64,000 nt of DNA from a virus. The stretch covers positions 1 through 64,000 of IMG/VR virus record IMGVR_UViG_3300023184_000062. One strand, written 5' to 3'. Under the pieces are notes generated by a model. That model did no database searches, was not told where the DNA came from, and saw nothing but the letters and a program-made list of their open reading frames with translations. How positions within the stretch are numbered: the stretch's first letter is position 1; every line of letters starts with the position of its first letter. Of this stretch, positions 3-27,527 are shown piece after piece. The position numbers and the translations under genes are program-made.

Positions 3-425
3 CGTAACGAAAGTGGTGGCGCTATTGTTAGAAGCATGGCTCCTTTTATTATGATAAAGAACGGTCAGACAAGCACTGCCATGAATGTTGGGCCAGCTGT
101 TCAGGCTGCATTAAAGAAAGCTGGACTATTGAAAGGTGTAGAAGAAGGCATAGCGGAAGGCGACATGTATGGTGATGCAGAAGTAAGTTGGGAAAAAGGC
201 GGTCGTAGAGCGCCAACTGGCGCATTCAGAAATCCAAACTTTGGTAACGTACTTCAAAAAAGTGTAAACAAACACAATAAAGCTATAGTTAAAACTAGAC
301 AAGATATAGGTAGCAGAATTGCTGACATTGGCCCAGGTGGAAAAGAGTACAATGTAAAGACCGATGCTGCTTGGGATGCTGCTAAGAAAAAAGTAGCAGA
401 AGGCGTATCAGCTAAAGCTAGATAA
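3..425 (+). CDS. 5'-truncated modular (probable head-internal) protein with GIAEG/KVAEG junction motifs
   Basis: Frame is open from position 3; contains GVEEGIAEG and KVAEG motifs like those at 21985-26422. Confidence 0.6.
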   Translation, partial: RNESGGAIVRSMAPFIMIKNGQTSTAMNVGPAVQAALKKAGLLKGVEEGIAEGDMYGDAEVSWEKGGRRAPTGAFRNPNFGNVLQKSVNKHNKAIVKTRQDIGSRIADIGPGGKEYNVKTDAAWDAAKKKVAEGVSAKAR

Positions 426-445: not shown

Positions 446-3238
446 ATGAAAACAAATGAATTTTTAACAGAACTATCTAACGAAAAGTTAGCAAAATACA
501 AAACTGCTGCTGCGGCTGATGCTAGCAAAGCTGATAAAGAAGGTGACTTCAAAAAAGGTGACAAGCGTTTTAAAGGTATTGTAAAAGCTACAAATAAACA
601 ATTTGCTAATGATACTAAAAAAGTACAAGAAAGCAAACAAGATATTTTAAATGAATCTTTATTAATGGAAGATCCCATTTATCGTCAATTTAAAAGTGTA
701 AGTAAGTATATTGTTGAACGCAGACTTAGCAAACAAGAAATCTATCAAATATTTGCTGATGCTGAAACCGGCATGACAAATAAAGATACTGGTGCTAATC
801 GTACTATGTTAGGTCGCGGCAAAGATGTAACAGGCAAAGCTATTACAAGTGTTAAAGATGCGGTATCAGGTGTTTTAAACTCTATACAATCTTCTGCTCC
901 AGTAGCAGCCGTTGATGTTGCATATGATCAAGCTACAGCTGCCTTAGGTAAATTAACTGGCGGTGAAAAAGGCAAGATAATGAAATCAATTATTGCTTAT
1001 CGCAATCTTGCTAAACAATATCCCAAAGCAGCAGGTTTTGCTAAAGCAGCATTAGTTGCTGCTGTAGGACTTGCTACCGGTGGAGCCGGACTTCCTGCTA
1101 TTGCGGGTTTAACTTATGCACTTGATTCTGCGATTAGAGGCGATAAGTTATCAAGTGTAATTGGAAAAGGTGCCGGCGCTGCTGCATTGGCATACGGCGG
1201 ACAAGCTGCGGCAGAATATGCTCAAGGCACCGGCGGTGCAGATATCCCAGGAGCAAATCCGCATCAACTTGATCCGTCACAAATGCAACAAGGCCCCGGC
1301 GGCGGAGGTGGCGGTGGCGGTGGCGGTGCAGGTGGTGCTGATATCCCAGGAGCAAATCCACATCAATTAGATCCGTCACAAATGCAACAAGCAGCAGGCG
1401 GTTCTAACGATATAGTAAAGACAGTTGTAAAGGGAGATAAATTAAGCGTCATTGCAGACAAATACAACACAAGCGTTGAATTACTACAACGTGCAAATCC
1501 TCAAATAACTAATCCTGATGCATTGGTAATAGGAACTAAAATCCATATACCCCCAACAAATGCTCCTACATATTATCATGGTGTAGGTACTGCGGCAGAC
1601 ACCGCTGCTAAAACTGCATCTGGCGCATATGATAGTGTACCAACAGCATTAGCTAAACAAGCAGCAGCCAATCGTGCCGGTGTTACTGAAAGTATTTGGA
1701 AAAATCATTCTCCTAAACTAGATAAAAACATTGTAGAATCAATATCATTTAAAAAGTTATCAGCATATGATTTAATAGACAAAAAAACTACTGCGTTCAA
1801 CTGGGCATTAAATGAAAGTATTGGTAATAAAAATAGAAATATAAATTTAACTACAGTAGGGGTATATACTATATTTGAAAATGTTGACCGTTACCGTCTT
1901 GCTGTAATGGAAGTAGCAGGAGTTCCGGGCAGCACTCGTCCAGAGCAGTATCGTCCAGATGAGCCGGAAGGTAAAGGTAAGGAAAGCAAACCAGGTTTAA
2001 TTGGTAGAGGACTTAATTGGTTAGACAAAACTGCCGGCAAAGTAGGCGGCGCATTAAGTAATTTTGGACATCAGTTCACTACAAACGTCACAAAAGAAAA
2101 ACTAAAAATGAATTGGACTCAAAAAGGCGAACAAAGTGATTCAGATGAAGTAGCAGCTTTTATGAAAAGTCAAGGTGTACCAGAAGATGTAATTTCAACA
2201 ATATACACAAAGATGGGTCTACCTTATACTCAAAGTACAGCCGCAGCTACAGCAGCAGCTACTCCAGCTGCCGACACAGGATCAACAAGTACAGATACTA
2301 GTGGTGCAGGTGCCGGCGCATTTAGTTCAATGGCAAATCAATTACCTAAATCAACTAATACATCATCTACTGGCGGCACAACTACAAATACATCAACTGG
2401 ATTAACACATACAAGCAAAGCAGTTGCACCAACAACAGGTGGTGCAGGTGGGACAAGTAGTGCAGGCAGTATGTCACAACCATCACAGCCTAATACACCG
2501 CGTGAACAACAAGCGGTGACTCGCACAGTACGACAACAGATTGATGACATTATGCATACTATATTGACTCAACATAATGACGACCAACCATCATTAGTAA
2601 AATATTTGCGTCAACGTCTTGATAGTAGTTTTCCCGGAGAAACTACAACAGCAGCGCCTAAAAGAGCAGCACCTAGAAAGGCAGCACTTAAAGGTAAAAA
2701 ACCTAATAATACTATAGCAATGCCAAAACGTGAAAAAATCCGTATAGGAAAAGACGAAATTAAACCCGATAATCCTATGTATGATAAAAAAAACGCTAGT
2801 GGGGTAACCGAATCATTAGGACTAAACTATCCTGAAACATATGAACAAACTAATGATAAATTCAAAAGCAAAGGTCAACGTAGAGTTGCTGCATTAACTA
2901 ATGAGCAAAATTATGATAGCGGTGATTATTCTAATGCTAGAATGGGTAGAGAGTACGGTAAAAGTAATTATCATGTTGATTCTGGTGCTTCACACTTTGA
3001 AAAAGAAAGAGTTAAAAATGAACCGGGCGGAGAATTAGGTAGACCAAAAAGTCTTGCAGGCGCATCTAAATCATTACCTGCTGATCCATTCAGTCGTACT
3101 ACAGGAAAAATACCAAAGGGTAAAACAGGACAGGTTCATAAAGTAGATATGGATGAAGGGAAACAACGCATAGATACTAGAGTCAAAAACTATGTACCAA
3201 TAAAAGAATCAGCAATATTACAAGGCTTAAGAGGATAA
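446..3238 (+). CDS. Large low-complexity probable virion protein with LysM domain
   Basis: VVKGDKLSVIADKYNTSVELLQRANPQITNPDALVIGTKIHIP is LysM; MKTNEFLTE leader; many [ILV]xE(S/G) motifs. Confidence 0.7.
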   Translation: MKTNEFLTELSNEKLAKYKTAAAADASKADKEGDFKKGDKRFKGIVKATNKQFANDTKKVQESKQDILNESLLMEDPIYRQFKSVSKYIVERRLSKQEIYQIFADAETGMTNKDTGANRTMLGRGKDVTGKAITSVKDAVSGVLNSIQSSAPVAAVDVAYDQATAALGKLTGGEKGKIMKSIIAYRNLAKQYPKAAGFAKAALVAAVGLATGGAGLPAIAGLTYALDSAIRGDKLSSVIGKGAGAAALAYGGQAAAEYAQGTGGADIPGANPHQLDPSQMQQGPGGGGGGGGGGAGGADIPGANPHQLDPSQMQQAAGGSNDIVKTVVKGDKLSVIADKYNTSVELLQRANPQITNPDALVIGTKIHIPPTNAPTYYHGVGTAADTAAKTASGAYDSVPTALAKQAAANRAGVTESIWKNHSPKLDKNIVESISFKKLSAYDLIDKKTTAFNWALNESIGNKNRNINLTTVGVYTIFENVDRYRLAVMEVAGVPGSTRPEQYRPDEPEGKGKESKPGLIGRGLNWLDKTAGKVGGALSNFGHQFTTNVTKEKLKMNWTQKGEQSDSDEVAAFMKSQGVPEDVISTIYTKMGLPYTQSTAAATAAATPAADTGSTSTDTSGAGAGAFSSMANQLPKSTNTSSTGGTTTNTSTGLTHTSKAVAPTTGGAGGTSSAGSMSQPSQPNTPREQQAVTRTVRQQIDDIMHTILTQHNDDQPSLVKYLRQRLDSSFPGETTTAAPKRAAPRKAALKGKKPNNTIAMPKREKIRIGKDEIKPDNPMYDKKNASGVTESLGLNYPETYEQTNDKFKSKGQRRVAALTNEQNYDSGDYSNARMGREYGKSNYHVDSGASHFEKERVKNEPGGELGRPKSLAGASKSLPADPFSRTTGKIPKGKTGQVHKVDMDEGKQRIDTRVKNYVPIKESAILQGLRG
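1232..1390 (+). repeat. ~60-bp coding direct repeat (GGADIPGANPHQLDPSQMQQ x2) around a poly-Gly linker
   Basis: Copies at 1232-1291 and 1331-1390. Confidence 0.9.
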
Positions 3239-20793: not shown

Positions 20794-21611
20794 AAAAAGT
20801 ATTAATAACAGGTAACAGTGGTTACATCGGTAGTCATCTTAGTAAGATGCTACGTACAGATTATGAGATATATGGATTGGATATTAATCCATCACAATAT
20901 CCTGTAACCGATCATTATCAACTTAATATCAACAAGTTGTTTAATATTGATATGGAATTTGATGCGGTAATTCATTTGGCAGCATTAGTTAATGTTAGTG
21001 AAAGTGAACGAATGCCCATTCAATATTATATCACCAACTTGAATGGCACAATGAATGTTATTAACAAGGTAAAGACAAAGAACTTTATCTTTGCTAGTAC
21101 AGGCGCGGCACAAGATTGTGAAAGTGCTTATGGCATCAGCAAAAGAGCAGCGGAAGATGTGGTACGTGAGTATTGTACTCAACATAGTCCCAAAGATTAC
21201 ACTATCTTTAGATTCTATAATGTAATCGGTAGTGATGGGTTTGCCCCAACTAACCCTGATGGACTAATGTATAACTTGATGAAAGCTAAAGAGACGGGTG
21301 AGTTTACTATTTTTGGTACAGACTATGGTTCGTATGACGGAACTTGTGTGCGTGATTATGTTCATGTTAATGAGATATGTGACGCATTACGTAGTGCTAT
21401 TGAGAAGCCAAGCAATCAAGTAGAATGCTTGGGCCATGGAGTTGGACATTCAGTTAGAGATATTGTTAATCTATATAAGAAGGTTAACAATGTTGAATTT
21501 CTAGTAAAACACGGTCCAAGAAGAAAGGGTGACTTAGCAGTATCTGTATTAGATAATGTGTCACCCTATATGAAAGAGTTATACTCTTTGGAAGAACTAC
21601 TTAAGGTCTAA
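20790..21611 (+). CDS. NAD-dependent NDP-sugar epimerase (GalE-like extended SDR)
   Basis: ITGNSGYIG, HLAA, YGISK, RFYNV.G, DGTCVRDYVHV. Confidence 0.9.
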   Translation: MKKVLITGNSGYIGSHLSKMLRTDYEIYGLDINPSQYPVTDHYQLNINKLFNIDMEFDAVIHLAALVNVSESERMPIQYYITNLNGTMNVINKVKTKNFIFASTGAAQDCESAYGISKRAAEDVVREYCTQHSPKDYTIFRFYNVIGSDGFAPTNPDGLMYNLMKAKETGEFTIFGTDYGSYDGTCVRDYVHVNEICDALRSAIEKPSNQVECLGHGVGHSVRDIVNLYKKVNNVEFLVKHGPRRKGDLAVSVLDNVSPYMKELYSLEELLKV

Positions 21612-21983
21612 AAACTTTATTTGGTTTGTTGAAAACACAACATACCAAACATCATCTCCCTCATCGTGTTCAGCAATGATACTATCATATCCGTCTGCTA
21701 TTAATTCTTCACGTAGTTCTAAATAATCTTCTTTCTCTAGTCCTACTAACTCATCCATTGTTGCTTCATATGTCTTGTTCATGGTCAATGACGCAGATAT
21801 GATATATTTTCCGTATAGTTTTGCTTCACGAATAGAAGTAGTAAAAAAATGTCCTAGTACAGCATTTGGATCTCCTGTACTAGTTCCTAGCGTAGCATTA
21901 TCAAATGACGAGAATTTATTGTTAGTACCGTGATAGGCAACAACACCCGAACTACTTTCAGCAATAAATTCTCTTGCTCTCAT
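21597..21983 (-). CDS. ADP-ribosyltransferase-like protein (polyvalent-protein ART type) with MRAREFIAE leader
   Basis: AYHGT...F..FD, GHFFTT...A..YG, GYDSII...WYVVF..NQIK. Confidence 0.7.
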   Translation of the reverse strand: MRAREFIAESSSGVVAYHGTNNKFSSFDNATLGTSTGDPNAVLGHFFTTSIREAKLYGKYIISASLTMNKTYEATMDELVGLEKEDYLELREELIADGYDSIIAEHDEGDDVWYVVFSTNQIKFLDLK

Positions 21984-21984
21984 T

Positions 21985-24024
21985 TTAGTGTCTTAACAAT
22001 AGTGTACTTAATACACCAGGATCGTTAGCACTAACATCACCTTCGCCCGGAGCAACAATAACATTGTACTTCATTCCAGCTGGGATTGAATTTCTCTTGG
22101 CCATGTACTCATCATAATTTAGTATAGAGTTAGAACTTAGTCCATACTCTTTAGCCAAACGCTGTTTCAATTCTTGTGTAGCTTGGTTATCACGGGTTAC
22201 CCAACGACCGCCCTTACCTTTTTCGTCTGCGCCCTCTTTATCTAAGTTACCCTTCTCATCCTTAGCTAACAAGTCCCAGAATAGTTTTTCAGGAACGATA
22301 CGACTATTCTTAGTTTTGTCTAAGTTTGGATCTTGTGCTTTAACTTGTTTCTCTTGCTCAGTGTTGGCACCTTCACTCCAATTGATAATGAAGTTGTCTG
22401 GCTTCTTAGCTAATGCTGCTCCGGCCATCTTAGTGTAAGCATAGAATCTAACATCAGGATGTTTTGCTGCCATCTTCAATGCCATGTCTAAGTATTCTGG
22501 ACTAAAGAAGTCGCCAGCATCATGCCAACGAACTGTTGTTTGCCAACCATTGGGGAATTTCTTATCACCCTTTGCTGCTGCACTTGCTTCTTTTGATATC
22601 TCACTGCTTAGTTGATTAAAGAAACCATCAGGGTCATTCAATAGATATGTAAGTATTCTTCCATCACTTTGCCATGCTGCCTTAAATTGTATCTTACCGC
22701 CCTTCATAGCGAAACAATCTACTTTACATGAGCCGGCGCCTGGACATGTGTTAACAACGATTAGATTATTAGTTTGTTCATCTAATGCGATTCCCACTAA
22801 TGCCGCGAACCCAACGTTGAAGAATTGTTCAAACTCTCCATTGCTATGCTTCATTTTTTCATTTTGCTTTAATAATGCTTTAGGACGAATTGCTAATGTT
22901 TTCTTAACCGCATCTTCATCATATGTTTTACCATCTGGACTTAAGTATGTAACTACGCTACTACGATGGATGTAGGGCATCTTGTATTTGTCACCTTTAG
23001 TCTTACCTGACACAAACTTTTCGTTACCCTTTTTATCTACTTTAACTTTTCCTGTTTTCTTGTCAATATTAGGTGTACCAACGATACGGTTCATGTAGTC
23101 TTGAAATTCTTGACCACCCAAATCACGGGTTTGTGCTGGTAGTTTAGTTGCTTCACCTAGACCAGATAGTTTACGAATTCTGTCTAAGTGTTCTTGACTC
23201 TCTGCCATGCCTTTCTTAGCAAAGCCGGAGTTTTGAAAACTGCCTTCGATATACCATTCCATGTCATCATCATTTACTTTACAATTTAATACTTGAACAC
23301 TATAACCTTGATCATCTAACCAGGCTTGTGCTTCTTGTATCATGTATTCTTTTGGCACTTCTGAATCAATTACGCCAATGTTTGCACCGCTGACGTCCAT
23401 ATCTTGCCACCAGCCATCACCTACTATGTCAGTCATTTCATCATCTGTGTACCAACGTCCTGATTCACCGCCGCCCGATCCCTGAGCAAATTCGTTTAAC
23501 GAGCCTTCCGCCACACCTTCTTTTAGACTTGTTATATAATTCACAGCAGGTTTTAATCCTGCAAATTCTTCTACAAAAGCACGACCAGGGCCATGTCCAT
23601 ACGCAATATATAGGCCTTCGGCAGTGTCAGGCTGATTCTTTATCACATACCCAATCATTTCTTTGCCACGATATATATGCCATTCTTTTTCATGACCGTC
23701 ATCATGAACTTTGCTCACATTAACATCGGGCGTTACAGAGCCTTCCGCCATACCTTCTGTTGCTGACTTTTTTAACGCATCAGCAGTTGGTGCACCTTTA
23801 CTTCCCGGTGTACGCATATGCTCACCACTACCATGCTTGATACGCTCACGTTTGGCGTGAATGTTAGCCCATAATCCGGGCTTGCCTTCTTCAACTTCTT
23901 CATCACCCTCATCAGGCATGTCACCAGCTTTAGCAACGAATTGCTGAGGTGTCATAATCTTGATACCACTTGGGGCACCTGGCATACTTGGCTCTGCGCC
24001 CTCGTGTAATTCTTTAAAGTTCAT
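21985..24024 (-). CDS. Modular probable head protein with C-terminal GP88-like (radical-SAM-related) domain
   Basis: TCPGAGSCKVDCFA, VRWHDAGDFFS, FYAYTK; N-terminal modules split by G(M/V)AE(G/S); start set at MNFKELHE. Confidence 0.7.
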   Translation of the reverse strand: MNFKELHEGAEPSMPGAPSGIKIMTPQQFVAKAGDMPDEGDEEVEEGKPGLWANIHAKRERIKHGSGEHMRTPGSKGAPTADALKKSATEGMAEGSVTPDVNVSKVHDDGHEKEWHIYRGKEMIGYVIKNQPDTAEGLYIAYGHGPGRAFVEEFAGLKPAVNYITSLKEGVAEGSLNEFAQGSGGGESGRWYTDDEMTDIVGDGWWQDMDVSGANIGVIDSEVPKEYMIQEAQAWLDDQGYSVQVLNCKVNDDDMEWYIEGSFQNSGFAKKGMAESQEHLDRIRKLSGLGEATKLPAQTRDLGGQEFQDYMNRIVGTPNIDKKTGKVKVDKKGNEKFVSGKTKGDKYKMPYIHRSSVVTYLSPDGKTYDEDAVKKTLAIRPKALLKQNEKMKHSNGEFEQFFNVGFAALVGIALDEQTNNLIVVNTCPGAGSCKVDCFAMKGGKIQFKAAWQSDGRILTYLLNDPDGFFNQLSSEISKEASAAAKGDKKFPNGWQTTVRWHDAGDFFSPEYLDMALKMAAKHPDVRFYAYTKMAGAALAKKPDNFIINWSEGANTEQEKQVKAQDPNLDKTKNSRIVPEKLFWDLLAKDEKGNLDKEGADEKGKGGRWVTRDNQATQELKQRLAKEYGLSSNSILNYDEYMAKRNSIPAGMKYNVIVAPGEGDVSANDPGVLSTLLLRH

Positions 24025-26331
24025 TTTTCTTATTCCTAATAAATTGTTCAGCAAGCATCACTAATTCATGTAGTTCTTCAATAGATTCGCAATGCCATCT
24101 ACGTAGACTTTTATTTATGTTGCTGTTTGGATCGTGTGCAGTTTTCGCACCAGTACGATGTTTCTTCATGCCACGCATTCTAGCACAGAAGCTAGCACGG
24201 CGTTTTGCTGCCTTACTACCTTTTTTAAGTTTGCTTGGTTTAGTTGTAACTGCTGTTTGAATCTTACTACCAGGATGACTACGGCGATAACTACTTACAC
24301 TCTTTTTACTCATCCCACCTGCACGTTTATTATTGTGCTTTGACCAATTCTCGCCCTCAGAGAAACTTGCTTCTTTTTCATCGGTAGTGTCACCGGTTAC
24401 TTTATATGTTTTTCCATGTACTACAAATGTGTCTTTGTCGGCTTTTATAGCATTCATTCTAGCATCAGTAAACTCATTGGATTCATCAACTTCTTTCTTT
24501 GCCATACCGATACCATCACAAGCACCGCATTTATACTTTTTAGCGCCCGGTACGTCATTAGCAGGAAGAATTTTTCCGTCAGGTGCTTTCCATAAAGTAC
24601 CACGACCTTTACATCTTTTACAACTAGTATTAGGGTTCTTTACAGTGGCACCGGGCATGTGGTCTACATCATACGGGAAGCCTTCCGCCACACCTTGATT
24701 GACGCTTCCTGTTGTTAGTTTAGCTGGGGCATAAAATGGTAGTGCGTGTTTGCCTAACAACTTAGCACTTAGTATATCAACAACATCTAATTTACCTTTA
24801 GACTTTAAAAGTCCAATTAGGACTTCTGGACCTTTAGTTTGTAATAATGTTAATAATTCTTTTTTATATGCTCCTGCTAATGCTACACCTACACCTGCAG
24901 CCGGACCGGCTACAGTGGCAGTCAATACTCCTGCTAGAGCGGATAATCCATAAGAAACTATGTCTTTAAACTGATACTTCATTTCTTCATTTTCTTCTGG
25001 AGTAACAGGTTGATTATTGGCATACTTTTTCATCACATCAATCATTATAGATGTTTCTTTTGCTTCTTTTCTTGCTTTGTCAAGCGCATTGCTTACAATA
25101 ATTTTTGTAACTGTTGGAAACACTGAGTATAGATTAGCTATCGTTCCTGGATCTATTTCATTGATATTTTCTTCGTCAATAGTTTGTTCACTAATTACTG
25201 TCCATAAAGCATCGTGAAGTTTATTTAAACCCGATGAATCTTCCGCCACACCTTGCAATCTAGGATCTGTGGATAATCTACGACCGTGATCATCTAATTT
25301 CTTAAACACAATGGCAGCGACACGATTAAAGATTGTTGTGGAAATATTATTTTTAGCAAAATAACGGTCTAACGCACGATAAATGGTACTATCATGGGCC
25401 ATATCATTTAACTTTGCTAAGTTTTTATCAGTAGTCAGTTTATCAGCAACATCTAGAGCCTGTCTATTCAAATCTTCTGAGCCTTCCGCCACACCTTGCG
25501 GGTTGCCTAATCTCCTAACAGGAATTTTATATTGTTGTACCAAGCGATCAACTTCTGGCGGAATGTCAGCAGGCAATACAATTTCTTTGATTTTCCAATT
25601 GTCAACCAACACTTCGTGGTGAACTGATGTATCCATACTTAACGTAGGATCAATTTGTCCAGGCCGACTAGAATATTTTTGTTGTCCTCGTTGTCCAGCA
25701 GTCATCTTATATTGATCTGACGCCAAATCTCCACGCCCACCGATTGTAATATGACCGTCAAGTACAATACCAACCGTTGGATTAGATCCGCCTCCCCACC
25801 TTTTTTTCCCCAAAGATTCAGTATTTGGTGCTAGGTATGCGCTTAGTTCAATCTTGTTATTCACTTTTCCTTGTAAGAATGACTCCAATTGGTTCAATGG
25901 AGCCCAGTGTACTTTTAGCATTGATGCAGCTTTTTTAGCATCCATTTTTTGTTGAAAGAGTTTTTTGAGATATCGCTCGGCCCCATATGTTCGTGTATTG
26001 GTGGCTTGTGTTGCAGCCTGATCTTTTGCTTGAAGTTGTTTGTACTGTGCTTGCTCTTCTGGAGTCATCCACGATACATCATTAAACTGTTTATTGTATT
26101 CTGCTGATGACGCCGCCGCGTCTGCTTTGGCTTTTGCTGGATCAAGAAGATCGGCAAGTGCTGTTTCCCAGGCCTGTTTATTTTCATCCGGATACTTGGC
26201 AAAAAAATCATCTGCAGGAATAAATCCACTTGTGGCAGGATCTTTAATTGTTTTTGCCTGTGGATCGGTCATAACGCCGGCAATTTTTCTAGCTTCTTTT
26301 AATTGTTTGTTTGAGCCTTCCGCAACACTTT
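23501..26331 (-). repeat. Dispersed 19-bp coding repeat, minus-strand consensus AAGGTGTGGCGGAAGGCTC
   Basis: Copies at 23501-23519, 23738-23756, 24678-24696, 25236-25254, 25479-25497, 26313-26331. Confidence 0.9.
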
Positions 26332-26422
26332 TTGGCTTCTTTCCAGCTTTCTTCATGGCAATGGCTATTGCTGCTCGTTGGGCATTACTACCAGCTTCGG
26401 ATATAATCTCACTAAATCTCAT
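24014..26422 (-). CDS. Modular probable head protein (GVAEG-delimited modules, CxxCxGxG zinc finger, C-terminal RRASFCARM module)
   Basis: MRFSEIISE leader; four VAE(G/D) junctions; CKRCKGRG...CGACDGIG. Confidence 0.7.
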   Translation of the reverse strand: MRFSEIISEAGSNAQRAAIAIAMKKAGKKPKSVAEGSNKQLKEARKIAGVMTDPQAKTIKDPATSGFIPADDFFAKYPDENKQAWETALADLLDPAKAKADAAASSAEYNKQFNDVSWMTPEEQAQYKQLQAKDQAATQATNTRTYGAERYLKKLFQQKMDAKKAASMLKVHWAPLNQLESFLQGKVNNKIELSAYLAPNTESLGKKRWGGGSNPTVGIVLDGHITIGGRGDLASDQYKMTAGQRGQQKYSSRPGQIDPTLSMDTSVHHEVLVDNWKIKEIVLPADIPPEVDRLVQQYKIPVRRLGNPQGVAEGSEDLNRQALDVADKLTTDKNLAKLNDMAHDSTIYRALDRYFAKNNISTTIFNRVAAIVFKKLDDHGRRLSTDPRLQGVAEDSSGLNKLHDALWTVISEQTIDEENINEIDPGTIANLYSVFPTVTKIIVSNALDKARKEAKETSIMIDVMKKYANNQPVTPEENEEMKYQFKDIVSYGLSALAGVLTATVAGPAAGVGVALAGAYKKELLTLLQTKGPEVLIGLLKSKGKLDVVDILSAKLLGKHALPFYAPAKLTTGSVNQGVAEGFPYDVDHMPGATVKNPNTSCKRCKGRGTLWKAPDGKILPANDVPGAKKYKCGACDGIGMAKKEVDESNEFTDARMNAIKADKDTFVVHGKTYKVTGDTTDEKEASFSEGENWSKHNNKRAGGMSKKSVSSYRRSHPGSKIQTAVTTKPSKLKKGSKAAKRRASFCARMRGMKKHRTGAKTAHDPNSNINKSLRRWHCESIEELHELVMLAEQFIRNKKNEL

Positions 26423-26501
26423 GTTTTTGTCCGTAAATAGTTGACTTTATTGCGTAAATATGTTACACTACATATCTTATTTATCACTTTGGGCTTTTAC
26501 C

Positions 26502-27527
26502 TTGACAAATCAATCTATCAAACGCATCGGTTTCGCTTGTAAGTTTTCGGAACTAAACAGTAAGGGTGAAATCTGTTCTATCAAAGAACTGAACACAGGT
26601 GGCACAACTCGTGCCTGGGTCAATAGACAAACTCAAAGTGTAGCGGAAGAAAAGGTGCTGGATGTATCAAAACAAAACATTCTACATACTCACAATCTAG
26701 TTAAAAAAGTGTCATCACTAGAACCCGCATTGCGTATGGTTCGTCTTACATCGGATATGTTGCCTTTCTATACAATGGATGGCTGGCAAGACTTTTGGCA
26801 AGATAAATCAATGCAGGATAATCTAGCACGATGGTTCGCACCGATTGGTGAAACAGCACGGGCTAATGATGTTCGTCTTAGTTTTCACCCTGACCAATTT
26901 GTAGTTTTAGCGAGTGACCGTGAAGAGGTAGTAAATAAGAGTATAGAAGAATTTGAATATCATGTTGATATGGCCCGCATGATGGGGTATGGTAAACAAT
27001 TTCAGGATATCAAAATCAATGTACACATCAGTGGTCGTAAAGGTCCACAGGGCATTCGTGATGTTTACAATCGTTTGTCTCCCGAAGCCCGCAACACACT
27101 TACACTAGAGAATGAGGAATACACACATGGACTACTTGACTGCTTATCATTATCTGACCTCGTACCTACGGTCATGGACATTCACCATAACTGGATACGT
27201 GAGGGAGAATACATTCAACCATCTGATGACAGGGTTAAGAGGGTTATTGATAGCTGGCGTGGTGTGCGCCCTACTATGCATTACAGTGTTAGCCGCGAAG
27301 ATGTACTCGGGTCACATCCACGACACATCTTACCCGATCATGGTGCGTTGATTAATGAAGGACATAGTAAGCAAAAACTTCGGGCACATAGTGATTTCTA
27401 TTGGAACGATGCGGTGAATGACTGGGCATTGACATTCTGTGATAACTTTGATATAATGTGTGAATCAAAATGGAAAAATCTTGCCAGCTTTAAATTATTT
27501 GAAAGATACAAAAATGGGATTATTTGA
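26502..27527 (+). CDS. uvsE: UV-damage endonuclease
   Basis: RIGFAC, RLTSD, RLSFHPDQF, NVH, LENEE, DIHH, MHYS, RAHSD, MCESK; start approximate. Confidence 0.92.
   Translation: MTNQSIKRIGFACKFSELNSKGEICSIKELNTGGTTRAWVNRQTQSVAEEKVLDVSKQNILHTHNLVKKVSSLEPALRMVRLTSDMLPFYTMDGWQDFWQDKSMQDNLARWFAPIGETARANDVRLSFHPDQFVVLASDREEVVNKSIEEFEYHVDMARMMGYGKQFQDIKINVHISGRKGPQGIRDVYNRLSPEARNTLTLENEEYTHGLLDCLSLSDLVPTVMDIHHNWIREGEYIQPSDDRVKRVIDSWRGVRPTMHYSVSREDVLGSHPRHILPDHGALINEGHSKQKLRAHSDFYWNDAVNDWALTFCDNFDIMCESKWKNLASFKLFERYKNGII

Follow-up and report, generated by a model that had tools for sequence, protein, structure and literature searches.

A codon-conserved in-frame DNA repeat marks the borders of exchangeable modules in putative head-packaged polyproteins of a freshwater phage

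The first 64,000 nucleotides of the IMG/VR virus record IMGVR_UViG_3300023184_000062 (hereafter the window) carry two overlapping minus-strand genes, A and B, whose proteins are chains of unrelated modules separated by a short repeat that encodes GVAEG or a close variant of it and that we call a joint. We found that the joint is spelled with nearly the same codons in related phages, that homologues of these genes are mosaics of modules whose homology breaks at the conserved core of the joint, and that relatives bearing the same genes encode a T4-type prohead protease, capsid protein and recombinase. The explanation that we favor, with moderate confidence, is that genes A and B encode cargo polyproteins packaged in the phage head, with joints that would serve both as short in-frame homologies for recombination and as cut sites for a gp21-type protease.

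Results

The repeat and its copies in the window

An earlier note on this DNA, made from the letters alone, had described a 19-bp repeat with six in-frame copies (at 23501, 23738, 24678, 25236, 25479 and 26313). A scan of the window with the 19-mer, AAGGTGTGGCGGAAGGCTC, recovered all six with 0–2 mismatches and all on the minus strand, compared to no matches in 100 shuffles, and no further copy occurs anywhere in the 100,746-base IMG/VR record. The repeat itself is real, but its length needed revision, as the part kept across phages is a core of 15–17 nt, (CA)AGGTGTGGCGGAAGG(C), beyond which conservation drops sharply. Every copy lies in frame inside the two overlapping minus-strand open reading frames (ORFs) and encodes (S/G)-(V/M)-A-E-(G/D). 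Alanine is GCG in 6/6 copies, and the preceding residue is Val GTG in four, Met ATG in one and Val GTT in one, compared to 8% GCG among Ala codons and 11% GTG among Val codons in the same genome outside the repeats; the departure from an AT-rich codon habit to which the note had pointed is confirmed by these figures. Two degenerate copies that it had placed near 23198 and at 145–161 are also genuine, with positions of 23197–23211 (minus strand) and 147–161 (plus strand), and a decayed copy at 24353–24367 adds to them. The joints are as follows.

26313..26331, minus strand: joint 1, KSVAEGS, spelled AGT GTT GCG GAA GGC
25479..25497, minus strand: joint 2, QGVAEGS, the exact 19-mer
25236..25254, minus strand: joint 3, QGVAEDS
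24678..24696, minus strand: joint 4, QGVAEGF
23738..23756, minus strand: joint 5, EGMAEGS
23501..23519, minus strand: joint 6, EGVAEGS, the exact 19-mer
24353..24367, minus strand: decayed joint upstream of the DUF6321 part, SFSEG/ENWS, spelled AGT TTC TCT GAG GGC
23197..23211, minus strand: decayed joint upstream of the GP88 module, KGMAES/QEH, spelled GGC ATG GCA GAG AGT
147..161, plus strand: decayed joint in a separate, 5'-truncated cargo-like gene (3–425), GIAEG/DMYG, spelled GGC ATA GCG GAA GGC

Relatives carry a canonical GVAEG/ENWS where the window has the decayed joint at 24353..24367, and the counterpart of the copy at 147–161 is a canonical GVAEG/DMYG in the related locus L013.

In the gene at 3–425 (plus strand), AAAGGTGTAGAAGAAGGC lies just upstream of the decayed joint and resembles a partial duplicate of the core; it may be the scar of an imprecise exchange. 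The same gene has a C-terminal KKVAEG in ordinary codons (GTA GCA), as at plain protease sites.

Silent codon positions are fixed across related phages

We compared codon use at 46 non-redundant joints from relatives, whose flanks are unrelated, with background usage. Alanine was GCG at 44/46 joints compared to 9% of background, valine GTG at 36/44 compared to 15%, the first glycine GGT at 37/38 compared to 51%, glutamate GAA at 43/46 compared to 76%, and the second glycine GGC at 24/35 compared to 20%. In contrast, 20 sites of the form [VLIM]AE[GSA] in the scaffold, capsid and other head-gene ORFs (at least 190 aa) of the relatives held no GCG and no GTG, and in the GP88 module of 18 non-redundant genomes the codon was fixed at none of 10 invariant Gly columns and at one of 9 invariant Ala columns, where GCG made up 2% of the Ala codons. 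Because the same peptide in head genes and the invariant residues of GP88 are written in ordinary, variable codons, the lock is specific to the joint.

At least 119 IMG/VR stretches contain the exact 17-mer CAAGGTGTGGCGGAAGG. Its contexts were examined in 80 of these loci (GC content 0.30–0.66), where it occurs 103 times in 102 distinct 14-aa contexts, each time in the QGVAEG frame, and the open frame at the 17-mer has a median length of 542 aa versus 20 aa in the two other frames. Together with the codon counts and the two controls, these contexts support the proposal of the earlier note that the joint is conserved as DNA, beyond its peptide alone, and the locus has what a recombination linker would have, the same short DNA at module borders with its silent sites kept.

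This identity might instead be a by-product of descent from one linker, maintained by gene conversion, in which case the joint would be a flexible linker and protease site only. A single shared joint sequence and the disorder predicted around the joints agree with such an origin, as do the decayed joints at 23197–23211, 24353–24367 and 147–161, where the flanking module pair is conserved and the lock has lapsed while the gene stayed. We nevertheless consider it unlikely, as silent sites are saturated at invariant residues next door in the same genomes, and a 17-mer in 102 unrelated contexts over so wide a range of GC content is poorly explained by passive descent. Gene conversion is moreover itself recombination on the core, so that this account differs only by denying a selective benefit.

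The lock might also be a translational or RNA signal, acting by pausing at the rare GUG-GCG pair or at a Shine-Dalgarno-like AAGGUG, or as the site of an RNA-binding regulator or nuclease. These genomes use GCG least of all Ala codons and GTG seldom for Val, AGGUG is able to pair with the 3' end of 16S rRNA, and the joints of the structure model lie exactly between folded units. However, the lock includes the common codons GGT and GAA as well as the preference for GGC, which pausing does not need; any rare codon would pause, yet the joints hardly ever have GCC or GTC; no start codon is found at a fixed distance past the joint; and breaks of homology inside the core would go unexplained. We judge a signal of this kind to be improbable.

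Modules are exchanged at the joints

The genes and modules of the locus are listed below, with module families numbered from a comparison described after the list.

24014..26422, minus strand: gene A, an ORF of 802 aa, with a leader and four modules linked by GVAEG-type joints (families 16-3-6-2-4)
25484..26317, minus strand: gene A module 1 (residues 36–313, family 3), with a weak hint of an ADP-ribosyltransferase (ART) fold of Tpt1/DarT-like type
25241..25483, minus strand: gene A module 2 (residues 314–394, family 6), helical, 81 aa, with 9 left and 10 right neighbors elsewhere
24683..25240, minus strand: gene A module 3 (residues 395–580, family 2), hydrophobic and helical, fused directly to GP88 in proteins P0010 and P0102
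Within 24014..26422, minus strand: C-terminal module of gene A, a zinc-ribbon-like CxxC..CxxC plus Pfam DUF6321 (residues 700–776)
21985..24024, minus strand: gene B, 679 aa from the ATG at 24024, with a conserved leader module, two variable modules and a conserved GP88 module
21988..23199, minus strand: GP88 module of gene B (residues 286–689, family 0), the conserved terminal module
21597..21983, minus strand: stand-alone ART-PolyVal ADP-ribosyltransferase gene, 128 aa (Pfam PF18760, E 4.7e-14)

The ORF of gene B is open from 24054 (689 aa; Pfam GP88 at residues 395–569; families 1-43-10-0), and its true start is probably the ATG at 24024 because 60+ homologues begin MNFKEL(L/H)EG.

Related loci, of which 39 were found on IMG/VR contigs of up to 367 kb, are mosaic with respect to both genes. 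Homologues of gene A are 76–95% identical across just 10–40% of the query and also bear other domains (cytidylyltransferase, NUDIX, GNAT and GP88), and modules found in gene A here are elsewhere fused to GP88. At least 1,937 proteins (E ≤ 0.001) are related to gene B and share the C-terminal GP88 module, 80–98% identical among related phages, after variable N-terminal parts. Splitting 219 proteins at the motif produced 627 segments in 212 module families, with 50 distinct left neighbors for GP88 and 54 distinct right neighbors for the leader module of gene B. Architectures include 16-3-6-2-4 (gene A), 16-3-36-4, 16-3-4, 37-2-4, 2-0, 2-10-0, 1-10-0 and 1-43-10-0 (gene B). The GP88 module contains the cysteine cluster CPGAGSCKVDC and always stands last in its chain.

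Homology between these loci ends at the joints. BLASTP homology ended inside gene A 184 times, and 85 of these ends were no more than 8 aa from a canonical joint, compared to an expected share of 8.5%; none of 10,000 random placements reached this count. At the DNA level, homology with loci L010, L011, L016, L017 and L025 stops at core +11 to +15 nt of joint 1, homology with L007 stops at core +12 of joint 2, homology to L008 and L041 begins at core -3/-4 of joint 4, and homology with L008 and L013 stops at core -2 of joint 5; at joint 3, BLASTP ends are grouped at residues 390–406. The decayed joints mark breaks as well, with ~30 loci beginning homology at 24358 (24353–24367) and the GP88 homology of ~20 loci beginning at 23181–23202 (23197–23211). 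The ART gene at 21597–21983 varies by presence or absence: in L013 and L016 the flanks are conserved and the gene is missing, and in L011 and L020 other DNA takes its place.

At least 12 studies of freshwater and lake metagenomes contain the stretch, and Logan contigs of four lake runs, from four studies, were compared with the locus. Contigs diverge at the edges of the core: 13 of the 24 listed loose ends lie at joint edges, including 25481, 25483 and 25499 (twice) at joint 2, 24680, 24681, 24697 and 24700 at joint 4, and 23503, 23504 and 23520 at joint 6, where there is also a contig joint, 23521>23909. At 24355/24358, where the window has a decayed copy, other metagenome variants go on with the canonical core TTCCGCCACACCTT, and contig joints also fall at the decayed copy at 23197–23211 (23191>23921 and 23196>24680). 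One back-joint, 24664>23210 with GCCTTCCGCCACA in between, puts a gene B module before the zinc-finger module of gene A and, as read from the contigs, shows a permutation of modules via the canonical core. Gain, loss, swapping and reordering of modules with breaks at the repeat, as the earlier note had envisaged, are seen among related phages as well as within metagenome populations, and DNA ends, contigs, architectures and BLASTP ends all place the exchange within the linker.

All of these data are metagenomic, and unrelated phage fragments joined in assembly at a shared short repeat would give false mosaics; Logan unitigs do break at joint 4, where the link is a 30-nt overlap. Such an artefact is very hard to credit, given that the core, at 17–19 nt, is shorter than usual assembly k-mers, that frames stay open through every joint, and that many independent samples show the same architectures. 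In addition, contigs of run X2, from a study other than that of the run best matching the stretch, span joints 1–3 (24680–26358) and joints 5–6 (23409–23958) with 0 differences.

Relatives encode T4-type head and recombination genes

The 100,746 bases of the record represent ~29% of the genome, and the part in the window consists mostly of replication and nucleotide-metabolism genes. Its DNA polymerase is 43–48% identical to those of 345–490-kb T4-related jumbo phages (Atu_ph07, Phosso, Vibrio 2.275.O and RaK2). We searched five long relatives that bear the same cargo genes, two of them 100% complete by CheckV, and found a gp21-type prohead protease (Peptidase_S77, PF03420), a gp23 capsid protein and a RecA/UvsX recombinase in 5/5. 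These relatives are ~350-kb T4-type phages; one example of their gp21-type protease is the 211-aa ORF at L046 1462–2097.

The number of joints per relative ranges from 1 (G002, complete, 349 kb) to 11 (G004) among G001–G005. Joints also occur at second loci of relatives, in other leader-tagged genes (MNLKELNSF..., 1151 aa; MRFKQIVENS..., 520–701 aa).

The earlier note had called the arrangement integron-like, and this part of it is not supported. A tyrosine integrase (PF00589) was absent from the record and from all five relatives, compared to matches in all control genomes; the homology is an in-frame coding sequence of 15–17 nt that, as judged by eye, is not palindromic and has no attC-like structure; and neither circular nor excised forms, which the note had proposed to look for, were identifiable among the metagenome contigs. 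Because all five relatives encode UvsX/RecA, recombination on short homologies is a simpler explanation than an integron-like mechanism.

A true site-specific cassette system of another kind would have the core as the recognition site of a dedicated enzyme, such as a homing-type nuclease or a recombinase. The core is sharply bounded and nearly invariant over 15–17 nt, which is in the size range of homing-endonuclease sites, and T4-type phages are rich in homing-type nucleases. Against this, beyond the missing tyrosine integrase and excision products, the cargo loci have no enzyme gene linked to them and the complete relative G002 retains one joint only, and we give this explanation little credence. 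The same low standing applies to a broader proposal, in which the core would be the target of a dedicated, phage-encoded nuclease, recombinase or template-switching process and would form a "protein-level integron" that diversifies injected anti-defense cargo on ecological time scales while the same six residues program protease release. The idea of a Chi site was rejected, as the joint is not known to match any Chi sequence.

The joint resembles a prohead protease site and the genes open with packaging-like leaders

In T4, gp21 cleaves after the Glu of hydrophobic-x-Glu, and positions 8 and 10 of the capsid-targeting sequence (CTS), MKTYQEFIAE, control processing (PMC9026906, PMC8442874, PMC5694885); an Asp at position 10 prevents it (PMC9026906), and gp21 cuts the ART Alt at ITE-6 and LTE-619 (PMC5694885). 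The joint fits this rule, as the earlier note supposed, and the relatives show that the lineage carries the gp21-type protease. The capsid protein of the relatives has a predicted maturation site of LLAE/S and their scaffold protein has LVAE/G, FVAE/S, QLAE/S and KIAE/A; because these sites look alike, V-A-E/G would suit the expected substrates of the lineage protease. Three genes of the locus open with a leader of ~10 aa that resembles MKTYQEFIAE and ends in (I/L/V/F)-x-E.

26396..26422, minus strand: gene A leader MRFSEIISE, T4 capsid-targeting-like, ending I-S-E
24001..24024, minus strand: gene B leader MNFKELHE, CTS-like
21957..21983, minus strand: ART gene leader MRAREFIAE, CTS-like

The leader pattern is family-wide, and it is matched by just 8 of the 724 ATG-started frames of the record. 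In the AlphaFold model of gene A, the stretches with pLDDT<50 (among them residues 31–56, 307–314, 389–400, 543–612 and 670–693) cover all of its joints and its decayed joint. From these sequence features it is plausible that the proteins are packaged in the head, cut at VAE/G and injected. A search for RNA runs containing the stretch found none, all runs that contain it being recorded as DNA.

Domains, neighboring genes and other observations

DUF6321 and GP88 were the sole Pfam domains of the two polyproteins, no peptidase domain being found, and a search of solved structures gave 0 sequence matches to either. Foldseek with the 802-aa model of gene A (mean pLDDT 60.9) returned nothing at E ≤ 0.001, and Tpt1 stood at rank 3 without significance at this threshold. 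In VIA-align, the C-terminal half of gene A module 1 aligned with Tpt1 (tRNA 2'-phosphotransferase) at Z 6.1 and with DarT at Z 4.6–5.4, which is below the reliability range; an ART-fold enzyme in this module is a lead only and, if real, would give the locus two ART-type cargo units. No match to the locus came from a megablast search of 50,697 phage records. With gene B, tblastn found only the GP88 core (Streptomyces phage Gilgamesh) and a 40-aa "GLWANIHAKR" module (cyanophage and pelagiphage podoviruses).

This 40-aa basic module (23757–23883, minus strand; gene B residues 58–98), PGLWANIHAKRERIKHGSGEHMRTPGSKGAPT, corresponds to phrog_16028. Elsewhere it is a stand-alone protein of 64–98 aa beside structural genes, without a joint, in T7-like cyanophages (S-CBP4 and P-GSP1), pelagiphages and a Limnohabitans phage, and in L008 and L013 it is located in another cargo gene.

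At 446–3238 (plus strand) lies a gene for a 930-aa protein that starts MKTNEFLTE, very near the T4 CTS, and contains a transglycosylase/endolysin-like part at residues 324–386 (PHROG 4602/380) and a "GGADIPGANPHQLDPSQMQQ" segment duplicated about a poly-Gly run. It probably belongs to the head or ejection proteins too and would have one part that degrades the cell wall. In the record outside the window, two ORFs at 72562–73134 and 76723–77514 have CTS-like starts (MRIRELFEE and MRAKEFLTE) and are candidates for further packaged cargo. The divergent neighbor of gene A is a UvdE-type UV-damage endonuclease gene at 26460–27527 (plus strand; Pfam E 1.9e-36), whose first codons contain the ATAAATA discussed below.

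Discussion

We propose that the three minus-strand genes at 21597–26422 would be injected cargo of an uncultured ~350-kb T4-related freshwater phage. Each of them opens with a T4-type leader, M-(K/R/N)-x-x-E-(I/L/F)-x-x-E, and module borders bear the peptide (Q/K/E)-G-V-A-E-(G/D), spelled nearly always (CA)A GGT GTG GCG GAA GG(C). As DNA, the core of 15–17 nt may act as an in-frame homology, a "linker" in Botstein's sense, on which phage UvsX/RecA-type recombination would cross over, either among relatives that infect one cell together or from gene to gene within a genome. Modules could in this way be gained, lost, swapped and reordered, with the shared frame keeping register, and silent positions would stay fixed because cassettes with an intact core are those that go on being exchanged. 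As peptide, V-A-E/G (hydrophobic-x-Glu, then a small residue) would be cut by the gp21-type protease in the prohead, so that the chain would be split there into single modules and delivered with the DNA. Packaging, cleavage, injection and a crossover driven by homology are the steps that we infer.

Several points weigh against this proposal. The gp21 rule is hydrophobic-x-Glu only, and the strict QGVAEG exceeds what a cut site needs. Neither gp21 nor gp23 had a match in the phage's own 29%-complete record, and its T4-type lineage is deduced from the relatives and from DNA polymerase similarity. Packaging and cleavage in this phage group are read from genes rather than from proteomics or biochemistry, and the sole hint of late transcription is an ATAAATA ~60 nt upstream of gene A that resembles the T4 late-promoter TATAAATA. 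Regarding recombination, 15–17 nt is short for a RecA-type process, some homology breaks in gene A lie off any joint (residues 109–112 and 380), and shuffling survives at domain borders anyway, so that breakpoints at linkers alone are no proof of homology-driven crossover. The metagenome contigs come from mixed populations, and many of their "joints" have ~20 nt on one side that are the motif itself and were discounted. Weighing these points, we rank this proposal above its four rivals and consider it reasonably likely.

If the proposal is true, the virion cargo of a large, abundant freshwater giant-phage group could be read from sequence, as a leader followed by modules between joints. Hundreds of small proteins, candidates for anti-defense or host-takeover functions, would then come ready divided into functional units. 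The joint would, moreover, provide a clear example from nature of selection for evolvability at silent sites: an in-frame linker of 15–17 nt would let unrelated modules recombine with no need of introns or a site-specific recombinase, and would act as a protease site as well. A practical layout for modular payloads in T4-type capsid delivery vectors would also follow from it.

Comparison with known systems

A full-text literature search for "GVAEG" returned no phage paper, and we found no published description of the joint. The cargo genes resemble those of T4 internal proteins (IPs) I-III and Alt (PMC9026906, PMC8442874, PMC5694885) in their leader of ~9–10 aa ending in hydrophobic-x-Glu, in the gp21-type (S77) protease of the lineage, in being highly variable and non-core, and in including an ADP-ribosyltransferase, as Alt is. 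T4 IPs, however, are single small proteins with one cut, whereas the proteins here, known from genes alone, are chains of unrelated modules with repeated internal sites, each a fixed six-residue peptide with fixed DNA. In the phiKZ-like giants (201phi2-1, phiKZ and SPN3US; PMC9026906, PMC5694885), too, a gp21-related protease makes several cuts after Glu in ejection or inner-body proteins, but their motif is S/A/G-x-E or A-x-E, their extra sites mostly remove propeptides, and neither DNA-level conservation nor module swapping is reported for them.

Polyvalent proteins (Iyer et al., 2017, PMC5512222) are also multidomain and are believed to enter together with the DNA and to be processed into units, and ART-PolyVal, encoded adjacent here, is one of their member domains. 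Their processing is proposed to depend on their own zincin-type MPTase, whereas Pfam finds no MPTase and no LPD-type domains here; instead of a chain of conflict domains with MPTase and LPD, the locus has ART-PolyVal in a separate 128-aa gene. The word "linker" is absent from that paper, which therefore does not seem to describe one.

On the recombination side, crosses have shown crossovers in the short, in-frame glycine-rich motifs (GRMs) of gp38 in T-even phages (Tetart, 1998, as described in PMC3157838), and segment shuffling has been described for PeSL cassettes and analogous elements of the IP locus (PMC2839356; Repoila, 1994, as cited there). As those accounts present them, both are short conserved sequences that flank variable segments and are proposed crossover points between T4-type phages. 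PeSLs lie between genes as promoter-terminator units and move entire genes, and GRMs are structural parts of one domain, whereas the joint is an in-frame, codon-locked sequence of 15–17 nt that stands between independent modules on at least 119 contigs. The "recer" sequences of Gram-positive albumin- and IgG-binding surface proteins were proposed to promote in-frame shuffling of modules without introns (de Chateau and Bjorck, 1996, as summarized in PMC3467074) and are multiple direct repeats of 15 bp at module borders within an intronless gene; by that summary they belong to a bacterial surface protein and a handful of genes, without a protease-site role. What the joints bring together is cargo of the CTS/gp21 type and in-frame recombination linkers, two kinds of system that are each already known.

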